DNA of 64,000 nt, from IMG/VR virus record IMGVR_UViG_3300023174_000135; one strand, given 5' to 3'. This document shows, piece after piece, positions 9,536 through 32,100 of the stretch (positions are counted from its first letter, which is position 1; each line of letters starts with the position of its first letter). Under the pieces are notes generated by a model. The model was not told the DNA's origin. It saw only the letters and a program-made list of their open reading frames with translations, and searched no databases. Position numbers and translations under genes: made by a program. The DNA comes from a virus (lineage: Duplodnaviria; Heunggongvirae; Uroviricota; Caudoviricetes).

Positions 9536-10075
9536 ATGAAAAGAGAGAAAACGAAACTTACCGTAAATGATATTTTAGATTTTTTTGCATCAAAACCTGT
9601 ATTTGATAGATCTAATACTGATTCTTTAACAAAATTTGGTTGGGCTTCAACCAAAGAAGGTTTATATAATATAACTGATATTTATACTTTTTTTGAGGAA
9701 AAAGGTTTTGATAAAAATGATGTTCAAGATTTTTTCCACAAATTTTTACAATTAAAAGTATTCAATAATACTAAATTAGAAAAAGGCAAAACTTTTATTA
9801 ATGTTATTTATGTGACAAATTATAATCCAGATTACCGTCAAAATAAAAGATATTTAGAGGCAGTATATTATTATATGGATATAACACATGAAAAAGCAAA
9901 GCAGTTAAAATCTGAATATGAGGCTGAAAGTTTATCGCAAATGCAAGTTTTTATTGATAAGAAAAATACTAAAAAACCTGTAAATAAATCAGCAGCTAAA
10001 CAACAAAAAGAAACCAAAAAAATAACCAAAACAAGACTTAAAAAAACACCTAAAATTGAAATTTTAGCAGCTTAA
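9536..10075 (+). CDS. hypothetical protein with basic Lys-rich C-terminal tail
   Basis: 179-aa ORF; KKxxK-rich tail suggests nucleic-acid binding; no family recognised. Confidence 0.5.
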   Translation: MKREKTKLTVNDILDFFASKPVFDRSNTDSLTKFGWASTKEGLYNITDIYTFFEEKGFDKNDVQDFFHKFLQLKVFNNTKLEKGKTFINVIYVTNYNPDYRQNKRYLEAVYYYMDITHEKAKQLKSEYEAESLSQMQVFIDKKNTKKPVNKSAAKQQKETKKITKTRLKKTPKIEILAA

Positions 10076-10106
10076 AAATAAATTTGTTTATTTCAATTTT
10101 TTTTCT

Positions 10107-10114
10107 TATATTTG
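10107..10114 (+). promoter_or_regulatory. putative -7 promoter box TATATTTG
   Basis: Exact TAnnTTTG match immediately upstream of the Nudix gene; implies the true start codon is the ATG at 10118 or 10166. Confidence 0.3.
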
Positions 10115-10525
10115 TATATGTTTGTTAATTTAGATATTGCGTATTCTTACCCTAAAAAGGGTGCTATGGTTTTACTATTTAATCAAGGTAAAATTTTATC
10201 TGTTTCAAGAAAATATGATCCAACACAAAAGGGACTTATTGGTGGCAAAGTAGACGAAGGTGAGACTTTTTTACAAGCCGCTATTCGTGAAGCAAAAGAA
10301 GAAACAGGTTTAGATGTATTTGGATTAATTCCAATTTTTAGTCGTATTGATGGTGAATTTTTTGCTGTTGTTTATTTAGCACAATGGAAAGGAGAAATCT
10401 ATCAAACCGATAACAAAGAAACAGGGGTTGTTGAATGGGTTGAGTGGGAAGATTTAGAAAATGGTCCTTTTGGTGCTTATAATAAAGCATTACATGAGCA
10501 TATGATAAAAAATAAATTACTATGA
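10112..10525 (+). CDS. Nudix hydrolase; start uncertain (track start is a TTG; ATG at 10118 or 10166 more likely)
   Basis: Nudix box GGKVDEGETFLQAAIREAKEETGLDV matches GX5EX7REUXEEXGU. Confidence 0.75.
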   Translation: MYMFVNLDIAYSYPKKGAMVLLFNQGKILSVSRKYDPTQKGLIGGKVDEGETFLQAAIREAKEETGLDVFGLIPIFSRIDGEFFAVVYLAQWKGEIYQTDNKETGVVEWVEWEDLENGPFGAYNKALHEHMIKNKLL

Positions 10526-11028
10526 AAGAACAAATAATTGAAGCTGTAAATAATGAAAACTGGGATGAAGCATTAAAACTTATAAAGAAAATACAAAATA
10601 AAGATAATTTCATTTTTGGATTACAAAAAGGTTGTATTAATTTATTACATGGATCATGTGACTATGAATTAATGGAACAATTTGAAAATATAGGAGTTAA
10701 AACATTTATTTGTGATACTTTACCAGATTTTCAATCTAAAGTAAGAGATGGTGAAATTAATCCTGAATTGGTAAAAAATGAATATGTTTTAGTAATGACT
10801 AACAAATCTACGGTTATATCAAGATTATTAAGCACAGATAAATGGAAAGTAAATTACTTTAAAATTACTAATAGAAGTCGTAAGGATAACAAAACAAATA
10901 AATATATCACAAATTATACTATAACTTATGATGTTGATAAAAAGCTTTCTTTTAAATCATCGGATAATCAAAATTTTTTGTTAGGATTATTAAGAGAACA
11001 TAGAATAAATAGTATTTTAGAAGATTAA
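10522..11028 (+). CDS. hypothetical protein, paralog A of a tandem pair
   Basis: Shares NWDEALKLIKK, a Gly/Asn core and C-terminal LLREHRINSILED with the next gene (NWDEIIALATQ ... LMRDSRINSILDDL). Confidence 0.55.
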   Translation: MKEQIIEAVNNENWDEALKLIKKIQNKDNFIFGLQKGCINLLHGSCDYELMEQFENIGVKTFICDTLPDFQSKVRDGEINPELVKNEYVLVMTNKSTVISRLLSTDKWKVNYFKITNRSRKDNKTNKYITNYTITYDVDKKLSFKSSDNQNFLLGLLREHRINSILED

Positions 11029-17687: not shown

Positions 17688-17718
17688 ATTTTATATATTA
17701 AAAAGTTATAAACCAAAC

Positions 17719-20538: not shown

Positions 20539-20553
20539 TTTTTATATATTTTT

Positions 20554-22493: not shown

Positions 22494-22757
22494 TTATTGG
22501 TTAAAGCTCCAACCAAAAAATGTATGAGCACCATTGCCTTCTATATCCCAAATTTCATATTGGGTCCAATCTTGTGATGGTTCGCCATACCATAAGACAT
22601 CAACAGAAAATTTATTTTCTGTTAAAACACCTAATTCGACGAAGGTGTGGAAATCAAGTGTTTCCAATAAAGATTTTAAATCTAAAAATTGTTGTTGTGA
22701 ATCGAATTCATACTTTCTAAAAAAATAATTCATAATTATAATGTTAAATTTTGGCAT
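22494..22757 (-). CDS. small hypothetical protein between fibre genes; possible assembly factor
   Basis: 87-aa ORF overlapping the 3' end of the upstream fibre gene by 22 nt. Confidence 0.4.
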   Translation of the reverse strand: MPKFNIIIMNYFFRKYEFDSQQQFLDLKSLLETLDFHTFVELGVLTENKFSVDVLWYGEPSQDWTQYEIWDIEGNGAHTFFGWSFNQ

Positions 22758-25700
22758 TGTGTATCACTTAAATAAAAAGGAAAATAAGATATAGATTTTA
22801 TTAATAAATAAGGATTTACTGTCACAATGCTATCTAATGTTGTATCTCTAGCAACTGTTATCGTATATGTTGAACCAAATTTTGATCCGTTAGCAAATAA
22901 TTCAACAGTCGAAGAAGTATAACGGATTAAAAATTTATTAAATTGTCTCAATGTCATAGCATAATCACTAAACATACTTGCATTAGCATTTGCCACCCAT
23001 CTAAATCTAATTGAGTTATTTTGATTTAATAATAAATCAATAAAATTTTGACCTAATGTATTTTTTATATAAAATTGTTCTCCTGAAGTATAAAACCCAT
23101 TAACGCTATGAGCTATAGCAATATCAAATAAAATGCATCCAAATGTTCCGGATACTAAACCATTATTATACATTTGATTTATTGACAATGTTTCGTTAGA
23201 CCTGGTTGAGAATGTTGTCCTGGTTGGCACATAATCCTTGTTATAATCATAGGATGAAACTCTAGTGTATGTGTCTATTCCCACATAATTTGTTCCACTA
23301 ATTTGTACACCCCAAATATCTATTTGATCCCCAGAATTTTCAATTTTTATTTTTCCATTTATTGCAAAAGTATTTCCAGATGTTGCTGCTATTGTTGCTG
23401 CTAAGTAATTAGATGTAAAACTATAGTCATCCAATACTGTTGATACGGTTGCATTAAATCCATTATAGGTAGTAGTAGTATTTAATTTAAAAGCGTCACC
23501 TGATGTTAAACCATGTGGTGCCACACAATTTATTGTATAAAACCCAGTTGTCGAAGAATATGTACATGATATTCTAACACCATCTACACTATATCTTGAC
23601 CAAGTTGCCGTTAAACTTGCAGTTGCAATTATAGGACCAGTTTGTAACCATACATTTCCTGTTCCAGAAACTCTTTTTATATATGCTGAAACCAATGGAA
23701 CTCTATTTCCTATTCCACCAGGTGGATTTTGAGTTATAATAGACATATTTTGATTAGTTATTAATCTATTAGCACCATATACTCCAGAAGGATCTAAATC
23801 AGGAGATACTGATACACTTACTCCTGTTTTTATCCAAGCACTATTTGTTAAATCTTGACTGTATATAAAATAGTTTTCAGCAGCAACAGATGCTCTAATT
23901 GTTCCAATTCCTGTTGTATAATCAATACAAGGAACATTTAGTCTATTAGTAACTCCTAAATATGGTAAAGAATCTCCTCCTTTTACAAATTGCGCACCCC
24001 ATACTAATAAATCTCTACTTGTTACTGAATTATAAGTATTAATTGATAAACCAGCAGTATTATCAAAAGCAGTTGCGCCATATACTAATCTCTGCCAATA
24101 ACCACTCATAGTAAATACTGTTTGTGAATTTGACCCACCCATTGCTAAACTAATCGATTCACCAGAATTGCCTTTAACATAAACAGACAACGAAAATGTG
24201 GCTCCTGTGGTTGGTAAATCTACCGCCATAGCTACAGAATTTGGATATTGATAATAACCTTTATTAGTACCACTAAATTGAATTCTGGTTGCGGTATAAT
24301 TTCCATCAGGTGCAACACCAGCATTATAAGAAACAGTAACACCAGGTGAGTTTAATATATTCCAGTTTGTATTTAAATATAATGAGCCAGATAACATATT
24401 ATAAGGTACTGAGCCTAAATAACTATTAGGATCTATTCTAGTTGATATACTACCTCTTGTAAATGTAACTAATTGTTGTGTAGCTGCTACTTTTTGATAT
24501 GCCAATTTATCAGGACCTTCAACCAATTGTGCACCCCATAAATAAATACCATTAACACCATCTCCAACATCATTGGTTATTATATTATTAAATACCCATT
24601 GTCTTACTTTTAATGTTACATCTGTATCTGTATTAAATGTTAAACTAATACGATAAATACCATTGCCTACATTTTCAATAGCGCCAGATGCATTAGAAAA
24701 ACTACCAGTAGTTATTGGACCATATACTGCTGTACCATTATCTACTCTAACTGCATAATTAGCACTATTATTAGTGTTAAGCCCATTTACATAAAGATAT
24801 ATACCATTAAACCCAGCAGGCTGTGCATATATTGAATATGTATATTGTTTAGAGATTCCTAATTTTGATATAGTTTGAAGCGGTCCTGCTCCTGTTGAAG
24901 ATCCATCTACACCTGTTGCAATTATTATTTTATCCATAGTAATTGTGCCATCAGGTGCGGTTGCACCATTGAGTGAATATGAAAACCCGCTTCCGGCCCA
25001 AACAGTAGAACTAAAATCTTCGGTTGAATATAATAAATTGTAATTATTAATATATGGTTTTGCTGGATATATACTTCCTTCATTATATGCAGTTGGTGTT
25101 AAAACAAAAGATGCACTTCCTAATAAATTATAATTATTCAAATTTTGCAAAATAGTTAAGGTTCCTGCTTCGTTTTCCACGGTAGCAGCTTCAGAATAAG
25201 CTCTTACTTTTAACATATCTAATGTTGCTTGTGCTAAATCAGAAGCGGTAACTGATATTAAATTATATTTCTTTTTTATAGTATTATAATTTTGTGATAA
25301 TTCATTAGCGGATAATATACGATTATAGATATAAGCTGAATAAAAACTACCATTAAAAAATCTAGTATTTAGCACTTGGAAAAAATTTCCTACGTTAAAA
25401 TTACCTGGTTGTTTATTTAGATTTAAATTAGAATCTACTTGTGTATTATTTACAAATACATTAATTAAATTAGATTGATTGCGTGTTACAACTAAATGAT
25501 ATATATTTGAACTAGTTAAAGCGGGAACTGGATAAACATTTTTTATATATGCTCCCATATTATTAATAACTAAAGATTTAGTTGCTAATTCTAAATTATA
25601 AATAGAAGCTGTTGGTGAAGCATCGGAAATAATTGTATCTCTACCTTCTAATGTAACATCGGTTACGTTAATTTTTAGAATTATAGAAATTGTAAAATCG

Positions 25701-26461
25701 TTAGATAAGGTTAATTGGTTTAATAAATTACCATATTGACTTATGCCGTCAAAGGTTAAATTATTTGAATTTGATAAACCAGGAAAATTATATAAAGCTG
25801 AATTTAATCCAGATTTTGATAAATCATATAAAGTATTTCTTACACCTTGTGTTGAAGTAGATAAAATATAATCGGTTAATGTCCCAACTTCTGCTTGTGC
25901 ACCCCAAACAAGCCAACTTGCAGTTGAACCAACCGCTGCTGAGCCTGCTCTACCATAATAAAATGATAAGGTATCACCAACACTAACGGTAAATCCAGAC
26001 GGTTTAGTATAAGATAATCTATACCAACCATTTCCGCAATCTTGACTAAACCAACCAGTTGCGATGTTACCAGTTGAACTATAAGTAAAAGTTAAAACAT
26101 TAAAATTGGTTGCTGTTGTAATGTTTCTAACTAAAAATACTCTTGAACCACTATTTATATCTTTGGTATAAATTGAAACATTCAGAGTTGTTGCTCTTGC
26201 TGTAAATTGTTGTATAGGAACACCTGGTGTTAAAGAGCCATTAGTATCATCTATAATACAAGCAGTATTAGTACCATCAGGAGCAAGTGATTGTGTTGAT
26301 GTAACGGTAGCACCACCTTTATTCCAATTTGCTTTTGAAAAATCTTGGCTCCAAAGTAAAAAATTTGTTTTAGGAGGTTGTGATATAGATTTTACATTTG
26401 AAGCATCTAATACTAATACTAAGCCATCTCTAACTGGTTTTAAGCCTACTGATCCACTCAT
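22736..26461 (-). CDS. very large (1241 aa) fibre-like protein with LamG-type domain and about four repeated SQDFS..W...APDG jelly-roll modules
   Basis: LVLVLDASNVKSI...FDGISQYGNL...SANELSQNYNTIKKKY; repeated modules NFLLWSQDFSKANW..APDGTNTA, LLYSTEDFSSTVW..APDGTITM, SVTVSYNAGVAPDGNYTA, FIYSQDLTNSAW. Confidence 0.65.
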   Translation of the reverse strand: MSGSVGLKPVRDGLVLVLDASNVKSISQPPKTNFLLWSQDFSKANWNKGGATVTSTQSLAPDGTNTACIIDDTNGSLTPGVPIQQFTARATTLNVSIYTKDINSGSRVFLVRNITTATNFNVLTFTYSSTGNIATGWFSQDCGNGWYRLSYTKPSGFTVSVGDTLSFYYGRAGSAAVGSTASWLVWGAQAEVGTLTDYILSTSTQGVRNTLYDLSKSGLNSALYNFPGLSNSNNLTFDGISQYGNLLNQLTLSNDFTISIILKINVTDVTLEGRDTIISDASPTASIYNLELATKSLVINNMGAYIKNVYPVPALTSSNIYHLVVTRNQSNLINVFVNNTQVDSNLNLNKQPGNFNVGNFFQVLNTRFFNGSFYSAYIYNRILSANELSQNYNTIKKKYNLISVTASDLAQATLDMLKVRAYSEAATVENEAGTLTILQNLNNYNLLGSASFVLTPTAYNEGSIYPAKPYINNYNLLYSTEDFSSTVWAGSGFSYSLNGATAPDGTITMDKIIIATGVDGSSTGAGPLQTISKLGISKQYTYSIYAQPAGFNGIYLYVNGLNTNNSANYAVRVDNGTAVYGPITTGSFSNASGAIENVGNGIYRISLTFNTDTDVTLKVRQWVFNNIITNDVGDGVNGIYLWGAQLVEGPDKLAYQKVAATQQLVTFTRGSISTRIDPNSYLGSVPYNMLSGSLYLNTNWNILNSPGVTVSYNAGVAPDGNYTATRIQFSGTNKGYYQYPNSVAMAVDLPTTGATFSLSVYVKGNSGESISLAMGGSNSQTVFTMSGYWQRLVYGATAFDNTAGLSINTYNSVTSRDLLVWGAQFVKGGDSLPYLGVTNRLNVPCIDYTTGIGTIRASVAAENYFIYSQDLTNSAWIKTGVSVSVSPDLDPSGVYGANRLITNQNMSIITQNPPGGIGNRVPLVSAYIKRVSGTGNVWLQTGPIIATASLTATWSRYSVDGVRISCTYSSTTGFYTINCVAPHGLTSGDAFKLNTTTTYNGFNATVSTVLDDYSFTSNYLAATIAATSGNTFAINGKIKIENSGDQIDIWGVQISGTNYVGIDTYTRVSSYDYNKDYVPTRTTFSTRSNETLSINQMYNNGLVSGTFGCILFDIAIAHSVNGFYTSGEQFYIKNTLGQNFIDLLLNQNNSIRFRWVANANASMFSDYAMTLRQFNKFLIRYTSSTVELFANGSKFGSTYTITVARDTTLDSIVTVNPYLLIKSISYFPFYLSDTQCQNLTL

Positions 26462-26465
26462 GCTA

Positions 26466-27761
26466 TTAAATTTTAGATTTCATATATTTATCTGTTAAAT
26501 TTACTTTAACTGGGCAAAGCACTTGCCCGATATTGGCTGGTATAAATACATCACCAAATACTTTTCTTCCTATATTTAAGGAACCATTAACATCTGCATT
26601 TATTTTCAAACCTTTACTGGTTTTAAATAAGCCTCTTTTAATTCTTGTCCCTAAATAAGTGTCTTGTTTTTTAATTTGTTCTAAATCTAAACTCGAACAT
26701 TTAGAGGTGTAACTTTCTTCATGTGTTAGAACATTTATTCCTGCTAACTTACATTTATAAGTTAACATCTCTATAAACCTATGATAGGGGATAGATACAA
26801 ATGTTTGATTTAGTTTTTTACCAAGGTTAATTCCTTGTTTCCATTCTTTATTATATCCTATAGCTAATTCCTTTATCTTGTTATCTTTTAGAGAATCAAC
26901 TATTTTTTTAGATATTTTATGTAATTTATCGTTTATACGGTTATTTCTTTTTGTCGTTAATTTATTTATTTTTTCACTTTTATATACTTGTCTTAAGACC
27001 ATGTTACCTTCAGTATCTTTATACCACGAATGTTTAAATTCTTTATTTTGGTTAGGCAAAAATTTTTTATAATGTTCTAATTTTTTGTTATAAAATTTAT
27101 TAATGCTCTTAGACACTTTACCATTGTATATTTCAGTTAAACCTGAATCTGTTGTTAAAGTTGCTAAATTATTTATTCCTAAATCAATAGCTGCTTTACC
27201 ATTAAAATTATTTACTTCTTCTGGTTTTGTATAAATTATTTCTAAATTATAATGGCTTGTTTTTGGCACTATCCTTACCTGAAATAATTCATCCTGTGTT
27301 TTTATAGAAGTTTTAATTGGTTGGAGATTTAACTTCTTTGGAAAATGTATATAACCATCACGCACTTTTGAAACTTTTATGTCGCCTCTAATAACTACTA
27401 CATTTCTACCTTTTTCTTTATCTTTATACTTCATAAATTTAGGGCAACCAGTTAATTTCGTCTTATCTTTTTTCCAAAGGTTAATAAGACTTAAGAATGA
27501 TTTAACATTTTTATCAAATAACATAAGCACTTGTTGACTAACCGATGCGGTTAAAAGGTAATAATTATTATATTCATCTGGTTGTTCTTTCATTAACTTA
27601 TCCATATCTTTATATCTAATAAAATGACCGGTTTCTTTATAATTGGTATTAAATGTATATAATGCTTGATTATAAAGATTTTTAGAATGCCAACATAATG
27701 TATCACAGGCTTTCCAGTTAACATTTGTTTTATTTATTTGGTGGATTTCGGTTAAAATCAT
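26466..27761 (-). mobile_element. tnpB: TnpB-like (IS200/IS605 OrfB family RuvC-like) gene, solitary with no tnpA, zinc-finger cysteines degenerate
   Basis: RuvC-I AAIDLGINNLATLT, RuvC-II region IKELAIGYNKEW, C-terminal ESYTSKCSS...KINADVNGSLNIGRK (RuvC-III NADxNGAxNI); the CxxC...CxxC ligands are replaced (SKCSSLD / KTSKG); 4-bp and 17-bp gaps to neighbouring fibre genes. Confidence 0.75.
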
Positions 27762-27778
27762 AATTTGTATATATTAAA

Positions 27779-28480
27779 TTAATAATTGAATCTAGATTTT
27801 GTTGCATTATAATTTTGTAAAACTTCGGCTGCTGTTAAAGAACGGTTATATATCTTTACGACATTTATTTTTCCATTCCAAGATTGTGCTGAACCAGTAT
27901 TGCTTGAACCTCTTGATGCTAGTTTGAAAAAAGATGATGTGCCTGTATATGTTGGTGTATAGCTATTTATATTTATTCCATCAAGATACCAACTCCAACT
28001 ACCATTATTTGATGATAACAAATAATTATGCCAATTATTTGAATTAATATTCGTAACAGTTAATGAAATGGGAGATGGTGTATAATTTGTACCATCTCCA
28101 TTGAAAGATCTCATTTGATCTCCCCATATTTCCAAATCTAATAATTGATATCCAAAAGTACCAGAATTAAAACTCCAAATTGTTTCTCTGGTTGCGGAAT
28201 TTGTATCCATATTACCACACTTGGCTATAACTTCTATTGCAAAATTACTATTTGTATTTAATGAAAATGGAATCCATACTAAATCATCTATACCATCAAA
28301 TCCAATACTGCCATTATTTGTGTTACTAAAACTTGGTCCATTTGTTAATGTGGCAGATATATTACTGGTTATATCACTCCAAGTTAAACCAGAGCCAGGA
28401 TAAGATTTTGTATTGCCAGCATCTAAATATAAAATTAAACCATTTTTAACTATACCAGGACCACCATTTAAAGTACTCAT
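27779..28480 (-). CDS. LamG-type domain protein (233 aa)
   Basis: LYLDAGNTKSYPGSGLTWSDI...FDGIDDLVWI...TAAEVLQNYNATKSRFNY. Confidence 0.65.
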   Translation of the reverse strand: MSTLNGGPGIVKNGLILYLDAGNTKSYPGSGLTWSDITSNISATLTNGPSFSNTNNGSIGFDGIDDLVWIPFSLNTNSNFAIEVIAKCGNMDTNSATRETIWSFNSGTFGYQLLDLEIWGDQMRSFNGDGTNYTPSPISLTVTNINSNNWHNYLLSSNNGSWSWYLDGININSYTPTYTGTSSFFKLASRGSSNTGSAQSWNGKINVVKIYNRSLTAAEVLQNYNATKSRFNY

Positions 28481-29136
28481 AAACCAAACCTCCCTTTCAA
28501 TGCTTTGTAATTTTGTGATATTTCAGTAGCACTCAATGCTCTATTATAAAACATTATATTTGATATATTTGAATTTAAAAATCTAGCAATACCATTGATG
28601 CATGCAAATGTAGCAGCACCAGAATTTAATGTAGCAGTATTAGCAAATGTTCCATCTACTGCAGAATTTAAATAAAAAATAGTATTTGAACTATTTACCA
28701 TTACAAAATTATACCATGTATTAATAGCAAGAGTTGTTGTTCCAATCCTAGCTCCAGAACCATTCCAACTTAAAAATTTATATGTATTAGACACAGCAGC
28801 ATAAAGAGATATAGAAGCAATATCACTAGGAGATCCAAATAACTGAATTTCGCTGCCTGCACCTGCTGGTAGTGAAATAAATTTTACCCAAAATGAAATT
28901 GAATACGCTGTTCCAATTGTAGGTAATGTTACTGATATATAATCATTAATTCCATCTGTTGTAATAACACCTAAATTGGTAGAATTAAAACTTGATCCAT
29001 TAACTAATGTTGCATTTATATTACTTTTAACATCACTCCAAGTTAATCCACTACCAGAATAAGATTTTGTATTACCAGCATCAAAATATAAAACCAGTCC
29101 ATTGGTTACTATTCTTGGTGAATAATGAAAAGCCAT
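28477..29136 (-). CDS. LamG-type domain protein (219 aa)
   Basis: LYFDAGNTKSYSGSGLTWSDV...TDGINDYISV...SATEISQNYKALKGRFGL; 4-nt overlap with the neighbour. Confidence 0.65.
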   Translation of the reverse strand: MAFHYSPRIVTNGLVLYFDAGNTKSYSGSGLTWSDVKSNINATLVNGSSFNSTNLGVITTDGINDYISVTLPTIGTAYSISFWVKFISLPAGAGSEIQLFGSPSDIASISLYAAVSNTYKFLSWNGSGARIGTTTLAINTWYNFVMVNSSNTIFYLNSAVDGTFANTATLNSGAATFACINGIARFLNSNISNIMFYNRALSATEISQNYKALKGRFGL

Positions 29137-29137
29137 A

Positions 29138-32100
29138 TTAAATTGTTCTTATAATTGTTTTTAATGTCCATCCAGAAGTTGAACTATTTGCTTGTAGTAA
29201 AACAAAAGCCCCTGAATAAGTATATGATAATACTACACCTGTTGTATTTCCTATATCAATTCCTCCTAATTCATAATACCTAATTGTATTACCAAGCCAA
29301 GCAGCATTTATACTACCAGATCTACTATTTGTTGTTCCTAATAAATGATAATCAACAAAAGCACCAGTATAAGATGCGGTTGCTATAGCATATATAGTAT
29401 TACTTCCTGTTACTAATGTTACTTTTTTAGTAGTATATAAAGCTGGTGTTTGATAATCACCGATTAAAGTTGTATTATCTGAAAATACTTCTAAAATAGG
29501 CATACCTGATATGTCATTTACACTAAATAATGAACCAGTTAAACTATCAACAATTGAGAATAATTGACCAGATGAACCTTCTACTGTTAATAATGTTGCA
29601 CCACTTATAGTTGACGAAATATAAACAGAACCAGATACTCCTAATTGACCAGTGTTTGGATTAAATGTTAAACTTGGTTGTGCTATTGCACTATTTGTTG
29701 AACTACCAGTTGCAGTTAAAATTCTAAAATCACCAGGATTAGAAATTGAATTAAAACCTGGACCTGTTGCGCCTTGGAAGCCTTGAAAACCTTGTGATCC
29801 GGTTAAACCTTGAAAACCTTGTGATCCGGTTAAACCTTGAAACCCTTGTGGTCCGGTTAAACCTTGAAAACCTTGAAACCCTTGTGGTCCAGTTAAACCT
29901 TGAAAACCTTGGAAGCCTTGCGGTCCAGTCAAGCCTTGTCTTCCTTGAAATCCTTGTGAACCTGTTGGACCAAATTGCGTATACATTACTTGTTGCGCTG
30001 TAACAATAACTGAAGGAACAGAAGGTCTTGTTGGTCCAGATTGAGTGCCAATACTTTTAATTGCAATATCAGTAGAAGGTGATGACCAATAAATTTCAAA
30101 ATAATCATTTTGATTAAAAGTTTTAAGGAAATTCCATGACACAACTTGATCTGATTGACCGGCTATATTAAACTCTGTATTTGAAGCAGTTAAATAATCA
30201 CCATTAACTGAAAACCATATATCAATTATACCATTACTTGAATTGGTTTTTGTAAATACAGTTGAAAATTGTATATTAAATGTACCAGGATAATTAAATC
30301 TTATACCAGTATTGCTATATAAACTAACACCATTTGATTCGTAAGTAAAATCCAAAGGCATTTTTAATGCTGTATTTCCAACTAAATTAGTTTGACTTTG
30401 AGTTGAATAAAAAGCACCATAATAACCTAACGCACCACCAGCACCAGTTCCGCCCATCGGACCTTGCGCACCTTGTGCACCATTCGTTGCTGCAGTTGTT
30501 GCTCCAACATTTCCTTGTGCATCAATATATAATGATAAGGTAGAACCTGTTAATCCGGCTATTTGTAATCTATTTAAATAAGTATTACCAAGTCCAGTTA
30601 CATAAAATGTAGTAATACCTGAACCATTTTGTCCTTCTAATATATTATCATTATCTGAGCTTGAACCTCTACGAATAGTTAATCCATTATTAGCAATACT
30701 AGTAATTATTTCCGGAGAACTTGAGTTATTATATGCTTGCTGTAATGTTGTAGTTGAATAAGCACCACTACCAGCTGATGGCTCACCAAATTTAGATACA
30801 TAATTAAATACCGCTTGTGTTGAATCAGTTAAATCAGTTGCAGATTTTGAAACAGATAAAACACCTATCAATATACCATTATTTCTATTATTTGAATAAA
30901 TTACGAATTGTTCTGTTTGTTGAGCCGATACCGCTGCTGCTAAATTTGAATAAACTGTTTGTCCATATTGAACTCTAACAACACCAGTTGGGAATAAATA
31001 AATTCTTTGATTAGTTGCTGCATTAGAACCACCACCAACAGATGTTACAACACCACCATTATCATAATTTGCAGGATCTATAACTGATACATTAGAAAAT
31101 GAACCACCTGTTTGTGTTCTATATTGAAAAGTTACTGGCGTTTGTCCCAAAATTGATACACTATTCGGGTTTAAAGTATTTGTTACAAAACCAATACCAT
31201 TACCCCATAAAGTACCTGCAGATATTTTGAATGCTAAACTACCAACAGCATTAGCAGATGGTATAACTCCTTGATTAATTAAAGAAATTGGTGTCCATAT
31301 ATCTCTAACAGCAGACATTGGTGATTGCTCATAATCAACAAGATTATTGGTATTTTGTAAAGTAGATTTATTTGGATGTATTACTTTACCAATATAAATA
31401 TTTTGTCTTCTTTGTTGTGGAGTTGGAAAAGTATTCTGTAATAACAACGATGAAGAACCTGTTATTAAAACAAATGTTTCTGAATCAGTAGTTAAATATG
31501 GTGTAGTTGTGCTAACAGTACCATTATATTGAACAAATTGTGCTGTTGGTCTTACAGAAGAAGTTATTCCTGAATTGTCTACAATCCAAGCTTTAACAGC
31601 TGGAACATTAAATGTTGTAGAAGATGATATAGTTAATCCAGGACTTGCTACATAAAAAGCACCTGTTGATAGAGCATTACCTTCTAATATATTTCTTTGT
31701 CTATCTGTTATTGATAAATTGATATTTTCATTTCCTATTGTAACAAAAATTTTACCATTCGATGAAGTTGAACCAATTGCAATTTGGCCTACATGACTTA
31801 CTCTTGAAGTATAATTTAAATTAAAATAATCATAAGTATAATAACCCGGTGTTGTATCACTTAAATATAAATAACTATTTACACTTGTTGTTCCAACAAT
31901 TGCATTTGTATTTACACCAGATATAATACCTGACATTATAAATAAACCTATTTGATTATTCGGAACATCATCATTTGCGACACCATCAACTACAGCTGAT
32001 ATATCTGAAGCAGCATTTGCTAATGCAACCGTTGGAATACTTCCTGTATAACCATTAACATAAACAGCTAAACCTTTTGAAATTGTAGCGCCTGTTGAAT

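Follow-up and report, generated by a model that had tools for sequence, protein, structure and literature searches.

A TnpB gene with an omega-RNA-like scaffold in front of a fibre gene of a large phage

The locus and the TnpB protein

The window, i.e. the whole 64,000-nucleotide stretch of Caudoviricetes DNA analysed here (IMG/VR record IMGVR_UViG_3300023174_000135), carries an intact tnpB gene between a LamG gene and a fibre gene, and the 3' end of tnpB holds a conserved omega-RNA-like scaffold (Table 1). The window has a long minus-strand operon for collagen-like, LamG-type and fibre proteins and is AT-rich, with a GC content of 28.8%. A preliminary description of this DNA, made from the letters alone, had placed a 431-residue open reading frame (ORF) 4 bp from the fibre start and 17 bp from the LamG stop, and these positions agree with ours. 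It had also presented the gene as a solitary tnpB with no tnpA, which is borne out here; no second tnpB copy was found within the window, no IS607 TnpA was detected in it by tblastn, and the Pfam listing for the 52 window ORFs of at least 100 residues, which covers 25 of 28 families, includes neither Y1_Tnp nor Resolvase.

Table 1. Features of the tnpB locus; coordinates are those of the window and CDS stands for coding sequence.
Feature	Position	Strand	Basis or remark
Fibre gene, 1241 aa; its first bases are the predicted guide	22736..26461	-	ORF; homolog P0121
Predicted guide GAGTGGATCAGTAGGCTTAA, fibre codons 1-7, sense strand	26440..26459	-	right-end boundary and TnpB rule
Right-end tip TTTAATAGCAT, holding the tnpB stop TAA and the A and T of the fibre ATG	26460..26470	-	
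4-nt spacer, tnpB end to fibre ATG	26462-26465		
tnpB CDS, 431 aa, intact	26466..27761	-	ORF list and translation
Conserved omega-RNA-like scaffold	26480..26576	-	sole match of covariance model R1 in the window
Hairpin 2, GTTAAA-GTAAA-TTTAAC	26494..26510	-	single-sequence minimum free energy folds
Hairpin 1, GGGCAA-GTGCT-TTGCCC, which is GGGCAAGTGCTTTGCCC in the minus-strand reading	26512..26528	-	covariation
Stem A (TTGGT..GCCAA), enclosing a variable inner hairpin	26533..26558	-	covariation
D390 codon, RuvC-III aspartate (NADVN)	26592..26594	-	invariant in 21 relatives
E349 codon, relocated ('Ealt') RuvC-II glutamate	26715..26717	-	invariant in 21 relatives
G302 codon, canonical RuvC-II glutamate position (AIGYN)	26856..26858	-	profile alignment
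19-codon insertion PNQNKEFKHSWYKDTEGNM	27000..27056	-	alignment A1, columns 258-275
D193 codon, RuvC-I aspartate (IDLG)	27183..27185	-	invariant in 21 relatives
17-nt spacer, LamG stop to tnpB start, with phage box TTTAATATATA	27762..27778	-	
Phage box TTTAATATATA	27768-27778	-	now 5' of tnpB
LamG gene, 233 aa, upstream neighbour, intact to its stop	27779..28480	-	Pfam Laminin_G_3

The ORF is a real and full-length TnpB. It matches the NCBIfam model NF040570 (guided_TnpB) with 158.1 bits (cut-off 100) and an E-value of 3.8e-46 over residues 8–400 of 431, the Pfam families PF01385 (OrfB_IS605, 72.8 bits, threshold 30.5) and PF07282 (Cas12f1-like_TNB, 50.7 bits, threshold 26.3), and PHROG 506. 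An AlphaFold2 model built on 21 relatives, with a predicted local distance difference test score (pLDDT) of 79.6, has structural matches in Foldseek to AsCas12f, ISDra2 TnpB, ISFba1 TnpB and the mimivirus Fanzor2 at E-values from 3e-14 to 6e-10 (8j3r, 3e-14; 8h1j, ISDra2 TnpB, 7e-14 with template modelling scores of 0.55/0.63; 9b0l, Fanzor2, 6e-10), and the modelled fold is of the TnpB/Cas12f type with WED, REC and RuvC domains. A phmmer search of the single sequence against the PDB gave no match, and a family profile was required for the alignment to Cas12f. The 19-codon insertion is missing in relatives of 60–81% identity, a shorter one is found at the same place in protein P0111, and in the model it forms a beta-hairpin with low pLDDT.

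The catalytic site was located in alignment A1 with 21 relatives of 48–78% identity, in which the residue numbers are one below the real ones used here. Judged from this alignment the RuvC D-E-D triad is kept as D193, E349 and D390, and there is no loss of the triad of the kind that would mark a dead relic. Both aspartates had been correctly pointed out in the preliminary description, but the glutamate proposed there, in IKELAIGY, varies across the relatives and the true one is E349, which lies within EESYTSKC, six residues ahead of C355, the first-Cys position of the usual zinc finger. The glycine G302, found at the canonical position of the RuvC-II glutamate, is invariant in the 21 relatives and aligns through the family profile with Cas12f 8j12 ('..iqmE' over 'lviG'). 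In Fanzors and some TnpBs the Ealt residue is defined as a glutamate placed relative to the first zinc-finger cysteine (PMC10711439), and TnpBs of the RIIr type have a glycine in place of the canonical RuvC-II glutamate (PMC10691335); by its aligned residues, the arrangement of E349 and G302 is the Ealt/RIIr rearrangement. C355 is the sole cysteine between RuvC-II and RuvC-III, with no further Cys or His up to D390, and the CxxC..CxxC motif is absent from the window TnpB and from all 21 aligned relatives, down to 48% identity. The missing zinc-finger ligands had been noticed before, but were taken as degeneracy; since all the aligned relatives are without the motif, the loss is a trait of the clade and not decay of this copy. 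The loss of the zinc finger in some large TnpB branches has already been reported (PMC10691335).

The omega-RNA-like scaffold, the right end and the predicted guide

A comparison of tnpB 3' ends from about 150 distinct family loci shows three recurring helices, namely stem A, hairpin 1 and hairpin 2. In single-sequence folds the same helices are located at equivalent places in most of 74 representatives, and RNAalifold recovers stem A and hairpin 1 from 36 sequences aligned with MAFFT. All five pairs of stem A show changes on both sides, each in 6–15 of the 36 sequences, with variants such as TTGG/CCAA, TCACC/GGTGA, CGGG/CCCG, CCC/GGG, CACC/GGTG and others. Compensatory changes are found in three of the five pairs of hairpin 1, where 97% of the cells are paired, and in locus L011 this hairpin has a 30-nt insertion in the loop with the stem retained. 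Standard pairs make up 96.6% of the cells against 69.3% in shuffles, 88 cells are changed on both sides against 24, and the covariation score is 0.733 against 0.212; none of 500 shuffles attains the observed covariation values, and in a control with slid register at most 54% of the cells are paired. The compensatory changes alter the encoded residues, e.g. IGQVLCP here and IGLVLNP elsewhere, indicating that selection acts on the scaffold structure itself.

The covariance model R1, derived from this alignment, matches the window with 81.3 bits (E 2e-11), and the next best hit in the window has 16 bits; the window sequence was included in the seed of R1 and the match therefore shows uniqueness. 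In Rfam 15 there is no match to an omega RNA, to RAGATH-18 or to a group I intron, either for positions 24000–30000 at E≤10 or for eight related loci at E≤1, where only weak unrelated hits were obtained. A covariance-model check of the region thus gives nothing with Rfam but locates the scaffold with the family model. The hairpin singled out in the preliminary description is real, and its proposed place in the omega-RNA region holds since it is one of the three helices, namely hairpin 1, but it lies 8 nt away from the positions 26504–26520 given there.

In the relatives the tnpB stop codon is located in or just after the 3' arm of hairpin 2. In the window hairpin 2 is without an in-frame stop, so that the CDS is 10 codons longer than in the relatives and runs up to the right-end tip. 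The tip TTTAATAGCAT is common to L103, L011/12, L013, L014-19, L105, L115 and L131, with a varying distance from the stop codon. Downstream of tnpB the DNA shared by the close relatives stops at the tip and the flanks beyond are unrelated; L014 and L015, which have the same TnpB protein, split directly after AATAGCATA. The earlier statement that the locus has no room for the ends of an insertion sequence (IS) is correct for the left end, but the right end and the scaffold fall within the final ~100 nt of the CDS, and the relatives show the same arrangement.

The guide of TnpB omega RNAs is the DNA just outside the right end (16–20 nt). With a scaffold that ends in the tip, this rule gives bases 3–22 of the fibre ORF, in the sense orientation, as the predicted guide. 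An overlap of the guide with the 5' end of the fibre gene, as proposed earlier, is thereby upheld; the RNA antisense to the fibre start that had also been considered is not, since the omega RNA would run in the direction of tnpB and the fibre gene. Within the window the guide matches only itself. A 16-nt guide has seven exact matches in IMG/VR, which were rejected as targets as they lie in GC-rich unrelated DNA and are about as many as expected by chance. A target-adjacent motif (TAM) was sought in the left flanks, where 'RATT' stands before AT(A/G) in the window and in three other loci, and this guess was dropped because four cases are too few.

The helices could also be DNA hairpins of the right end that are read by a transposase and not parts of a guide RNA, like the sub-terminal hairpins of IS200/IS605 elements, which TnpA reads as single-stranded DNA, and the covariation test cannot separate RNA from single-stranded DNA. 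However, no Y1 transposase is seen in any locus of the family, the sole partner found is a serine recombinase (in L080 and L129), which acts on double-stranded DNA, and three helices with G-U pairs over ~100 nt, 60–110 nt from the tip, are more like an omega RNA. We therefore consider this explanation very improbable. By its sequence the 3' end of tnpB encodes a putative structured omega RNA with a sharp boundary between scaffold and guide, and the protein and this putative RNA very likely form a cognate module. Phage TnpB genes, solitary TnpBs, the relocated glutamate and the loss of the zinc finger have all been described already; what is new is how exactly this copy is built and, for this phage lineage, the scaffold, which is not in Rfam.

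In several independent loci the tip ends in ..CAT and is followed by a G, making the ATG of the next gene. This is the case in the window (26459–26470, fibre), in L103 (about 1495–1503, a lipoprotein-like ORF) and in L073, L140, L105 and L020/L022, and the recurrence suggests that either the target is a preferred one or selection favours insertions or deletions whose end coincides exactly with a start codon. At 45678–45693 on the plus strand of the window, AATAATTTAATAGCAT is 16 nt identical to the right-end tip of L014-L019 and is located directly 5' of the ATG (45692) of a 110-residue ORF that follows an MgtC-family gene. The site may be the footprint of a lost element; no second scaffold was found near 45.7 kb by the covariance model.

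The empty site, the host phage and the related elements

Searches of IMG/VR with the LamG protein and the fibre N-terminus yielded no phage above 38% identity, which is too distant to reveal an empty site, and the empty-site loci came from a protein database search with the fibre protein, whose homolog P0121 in a related phage is 58% identical over the full length. The DNA of this phage (L190) aligns to the window at 68.7% identity over 4.4 kb and the gene order matches on both sides, with products of 1132/1123 residues (window/L190), LamG genes, 1241/1248, 87/79, 642/651 and 939/916 residues. No tnpB is present at the homologous junction in L190-L192. In L190 the junction reads ..EVLQNYNTLKKRFTS* TAA-atatataaaaat-ATGAGCGGAGCA, with the fibre ATG straight after atatataaaaat, and in the window it reads ..EVLQNYNATKSRFNY* TAA-tttaatatatacaaatt-[ATGATT..tnpB..TTTAATAGC]-ATGAGTGGATCA. 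The extra DNA of the window is exactly 1300 bp, i.e. the tnpB ORF plus 4 nt with ATG at both edges, and the insertion point is between the phage box TTTAATATATA and the fibre ATG; its precise removal would restore the junction ..CAAATT-ATGAGTGG. The fibre N-termini are MSGSVGLKPV in the window and MSGAIGLKTV in L190, and the LamG protein ends in ..EVLQNYNATKSRFNY*, a C-terminus with homologs in L190 and in the proteins encoded ahead of the other fibre genes. A related genome without the insertion had been expected to define the site, which the L190 junction does.

The insertion has no left end. A noncoding left end of 100–125 nt upstream of tnpB is shared by L103 (TnpB 81% identical), L011, L013 and L014 and is lacking here, and the window copy is therefore probably immobile. 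Decay from a fuller element, considered earlier as an alternative, is thus partly supported, in that the close relatives have a left end and the distant ones an IS607-type tnpA, and the window has neither.

The LamG protein of 233 residues and a 602-residue DUF5122 protein located at the same position in L190 have the N-terminus (MSTLNGGPGIV.NGL) and a C-terminal motif in common, and the DNA of their N-termini (27779–28480 compared with L190 4121–5929) is 84% identical over 185 nt. Judged by these alignments, whole domains have come and gone between conserved ends, which makes the fibre module a mosaic.

The box TTTAATATATA is found within 35 nt 5' of 20 of the 64 ORF starts of the window, where about 2.6 are expected by chance, and it is probably a late promoter or leader of the phage. 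As TTTAATATATA(A) it sits 11–31 nt upstream of the start codon, chiefly in the operon of structural genes, and further examples are located at 20541–20551 and 17690–17700. A similar box, AATATATAAT, precedes tnpB in related TnpB elements, and could have mediated the loss of the left end.

A TnpB identical to that of the window (P0001) is recorded on contigs of up to 291,723 bp, indicating that the source is a very large phage, and the gene order of the window is found again on a 78.6-kb contig from one sample. Among 50,697 public phage records (INPHARED) megablast detected no close relative of positions 25000–29500. Other genes of the window encode RNase H, PRPP synthetase, a NUDIX protein, a SET-domain protein and MgtC, and there are also two HNH-domain proteins and one GIY-YIG/NUMOD protein that resemble free-standing homing endonucleases.

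The closest relatives of the TnpB, with 63–81% identity, are all solitary genes on phage-like contigs, which holds for every relative above 60% identity; the best match among 185,579 species genomes is 51% identical, and 39 public phage records have a TnpB match. The more distant members in L080 and L129 (44–45% identity) are located directly behind a TnpA of 188 residues with a Resolvase domain (Pfam Resolvase, E 5e-17), indicating that the family is IS607-related. No Y1 transposase was seen among the neighbours in the gene calls of the related loci.

Nested deletions anchored exactly at the right end were observed among gut crAss-like contigs with a TnpB of 44% identity (L086/L043 compared with L071, L050, L053 and L059), in which variants with the same left flank resume after the tip at points 741, ~940, 940 or 1973 bp downstream of where the reference does. 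In the subgroup of the window (L014 compared with L015/L018) a 198-bp deletion begins right after AATAGCATA. Such deletions give each variant a different predicted guide. Direct repeats like target-site duplications flank the elements of the gut subgroup in L037, L038/L047 and L049 (AATGATAG, AAGACAGTG and ATATTTGA, 8–9 bp) and, in the window subgroup, that of L013 (ATGTTAAAA(A)C, 10–11 bp), and some relatives have ends like inverted repeats, GGTAACTATAT../..ATATAATTACC and GCTAATAAAA../..TTTTAATAGC; such repeats and ends are expected for neither IS605 nor IS607. A target-site duplication as a rule of the family was dropped, as it is clear at four sites (8–11 bp) and absent or ambiguous elsewhere, including the freshwater subgroup. 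The L014 contig, which carries P0005, has a second and different TnpB of 383 residues (HTH_OrfB_IS605; 9662–10813, minus strand), and beside it 44 nt (10914–10957) are 84% identical to L015 6287–6330, just past the right end of the first element.

Possible role and relation to known systems

We lean, with no great confidence, to the reading that the window holds a stranded but active phage-borne TnpB-omegaRNA element that acts as a free-standing homing nuclease, and it could probably still cleave the genomes of sibling phages devoid of it. In this scheme tnpB would be co-transcribed with the fibre operon, starting from the box TTTAATATATA that it has hijacked, and the 3' part of the transcript would be bound by the protein and trimmed to an omega RNA whose guide is the start of the fibre ORF. 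The ribonucleoprotein would cut DNA where the guide sequence follows a TAM in place of the right-end tip, and the expected target is this very junction in sibling phages that co-infect the cell and lack the insertion. Repair by recombination with the genome bearing tnpB would then copy tnpB into the cut genome and co-convert the adjacent fibre alleles, so that the element would behave as a free-standing homing endonuclease gene and no longer as a transposon. Homing or cassette exchange is plausible at this site. The extension of the CDS by 10 codons puts the stop 4 nt from the fibre ATG and probably keeps the translation of the fibre gene coupled.

The main rival is that the locus is an inert remnant, i.e. 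that a TnpB element, once inserted ahead of the fibre gene, was stripped of its left end and of any transposase partner, and is now a passenger until it is eroded. We regard this as doubtful, though it has a real chance of being correct. The missing left end, the single copy and the lack of a tnpA fit such a remnant, as do the lack of a natural target and the fact that solitary TnpB genes are very common (PMC10691335). On the other hand the ORF is of full length with all invariant catalytic and structural residues kept, the right-end tip and all three helices of the RNA are undamaged, and the frame is extended exactly to the tip, at a 4-nt coupling distance from an essential gene. Furthermore, the pairwise dN/dS of tnpB against five relatives is 0.18–0.23, i.e. 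about 0.2, indicating purifying selection, a value that covers more than the branch after the loss of the left end. By its catalytic residues and dN/dS tnpB is thus, as far as sequence comparison goes, not a dead relic.

Besides this breadth of the dN/dS estimate, four more points weigh against an active homing nuclease. An element with no left end and a single copy looks the same as a decaying remnant; no natural target was seen, and the sole TnpB-less relative found mismatches the guide at 5 of 16 positions; the neighbours of tnpB vary in every related locus, so that there is no conserved partnership with fibre genes; and we know of no demonstration of nuclease activity for a TnpB of this type without a zinc finger.

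A further alternative is a domesticated module, which would serve either as a weapon against competitors with a matching fibre junction or, through processing or binding of the omega RNA, in the tuning of fibre expression. The tnpB gene sits behind the promoter-like box of the fibre gene itself, the guide and the fibre start are on one transcript, so that by analogy the omega RNA should compete with the fibre mRNA (PMC10690162), and the HNH and GIY-YIG genes of the window indicate that such phages tolerate, and may use, free-standing nucleases. However, the neighbourhood of TnpB and fibre gene is not conserved in the relatives, the related phage manages without tnpB, and the known exapted regulatory relatives of TnpB are nuclease-dead, whereas the catalytic residues are kept here; we find domestication quite unlikely. 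The same invariant residues make the nuclease-dead regulatory role entertained in the preliminary description unlikely. TldR proteins, which are nuclease-dead repressors, resemble the present case in being solitary, immobilised TnpB-like genes with a guide at the 5' region of a neighbour, but in the window D193, E349 and D390 are invariant and the guide is located inside the start of the ORF and not at a promoter.

The proposed active element has much in common with the obligate mobile element guided activity (OMEGA) systems of IS200/IS605 and IS607 (e.g. ISDra2 TnpB, PDB 8H1J/8EXA), namely the protein family and fold, and a structured RNA encoded by the tnpB 3' end together with the right end, with the guide just outside. 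It differs in lacking tnpA, left end and zinc finger and in the relocated catalytic glutamate. IS607 ends terminate in GG, without terminal inverted repeats or target duplications (PMC13565253), whereas the right end of the window finishes in ..AATAGCAT (..AGCAT); moreover, a serine-recombinase tnpA next to tnpB was not found in the window and an omega RNA of the RAGATH-18 type is not among the Rfam matches. Compared with IS200/IS605, there is no Y1 (HUH) tnpA among the window ORFs and a left end with a sub-terminal hairpin is absent. The glycine substitution and the invariant glutamate are like those of the RIIr (Altae-Tran et al. 2023, PMC10691335) and Ealt proteins (Yoon et al. 2023, PMC10711439), and some of these rearranged branches are reported to be virus-specific and some large ones to be without a zinc finger (PMC10691335, PMC10711439). 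Fanzors and pro-Fanzors share Ealt, but their RuvC-I reads D-P-G (PMC10711439) and that of the window I-D-L-G. IStrons, which combine a group I intron with an IS605/IS607-type element (PMC10690162), are likewise TnpB elements within a transcription unit that spare the host gene, but no Intron_gpI match was obtained in 24000–30000 or in the related loci, and the stretch from the box to the tnpB ATG holds nothing more. Splicing is not needed here because the insertion is intergenic by 4 nt.

The free-standing homing endonucleases SegF, SegB and Mob of T-even phages, known for 'intronless homing' (reviewed in PMC13565253), are alike in that their genes, too, are inserted between conserved genes of the phage and are missing from its relatives, in the preferential inheritance and co-conversion of neighbours that would be expected in mixed infections, and in the presence of HNH and GIY-YIG genes in the same window. 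They differ in that the element of the window is predicted to recognize its target by a guide RNA and a TAM and not by protein alone, and self would be told from non-self by the insertion itself, the tip replacing the TAM. A wider proposal, which we think unlikely, is that this phage-restricted lineage has left transposition and lives by RNA-guided 'intronless' homing, or as a gene drive, among phages that co-infect a cell, with the guide re-programmed by right-end-anchored deletions; these deletions may be the reason that the ATG of a following gene so often adjoins the tip. If this were true, the lineage would here drive the inheritance of the adjacent tail-fibre cassette and hence of host range.

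The empty-site comparison indicates that elements of this kind can be stripped to an ORF and a right end while sparing the essential gene downstream. If the element is not active, it is one more solitary TnpB, a very common thing. A compact TnpB of 431 residues without a zinc finger, from an AT-rich context and with a defined scaffold and guide boundary, is also a testable editing tool. Should the element be active, it would represent a naturally occurring RNA-guided nuclease in the role of a homing endonuclease within a lytic giant phage, and since host-range genes adjoin it, it could bias the spread of fibre alleles.

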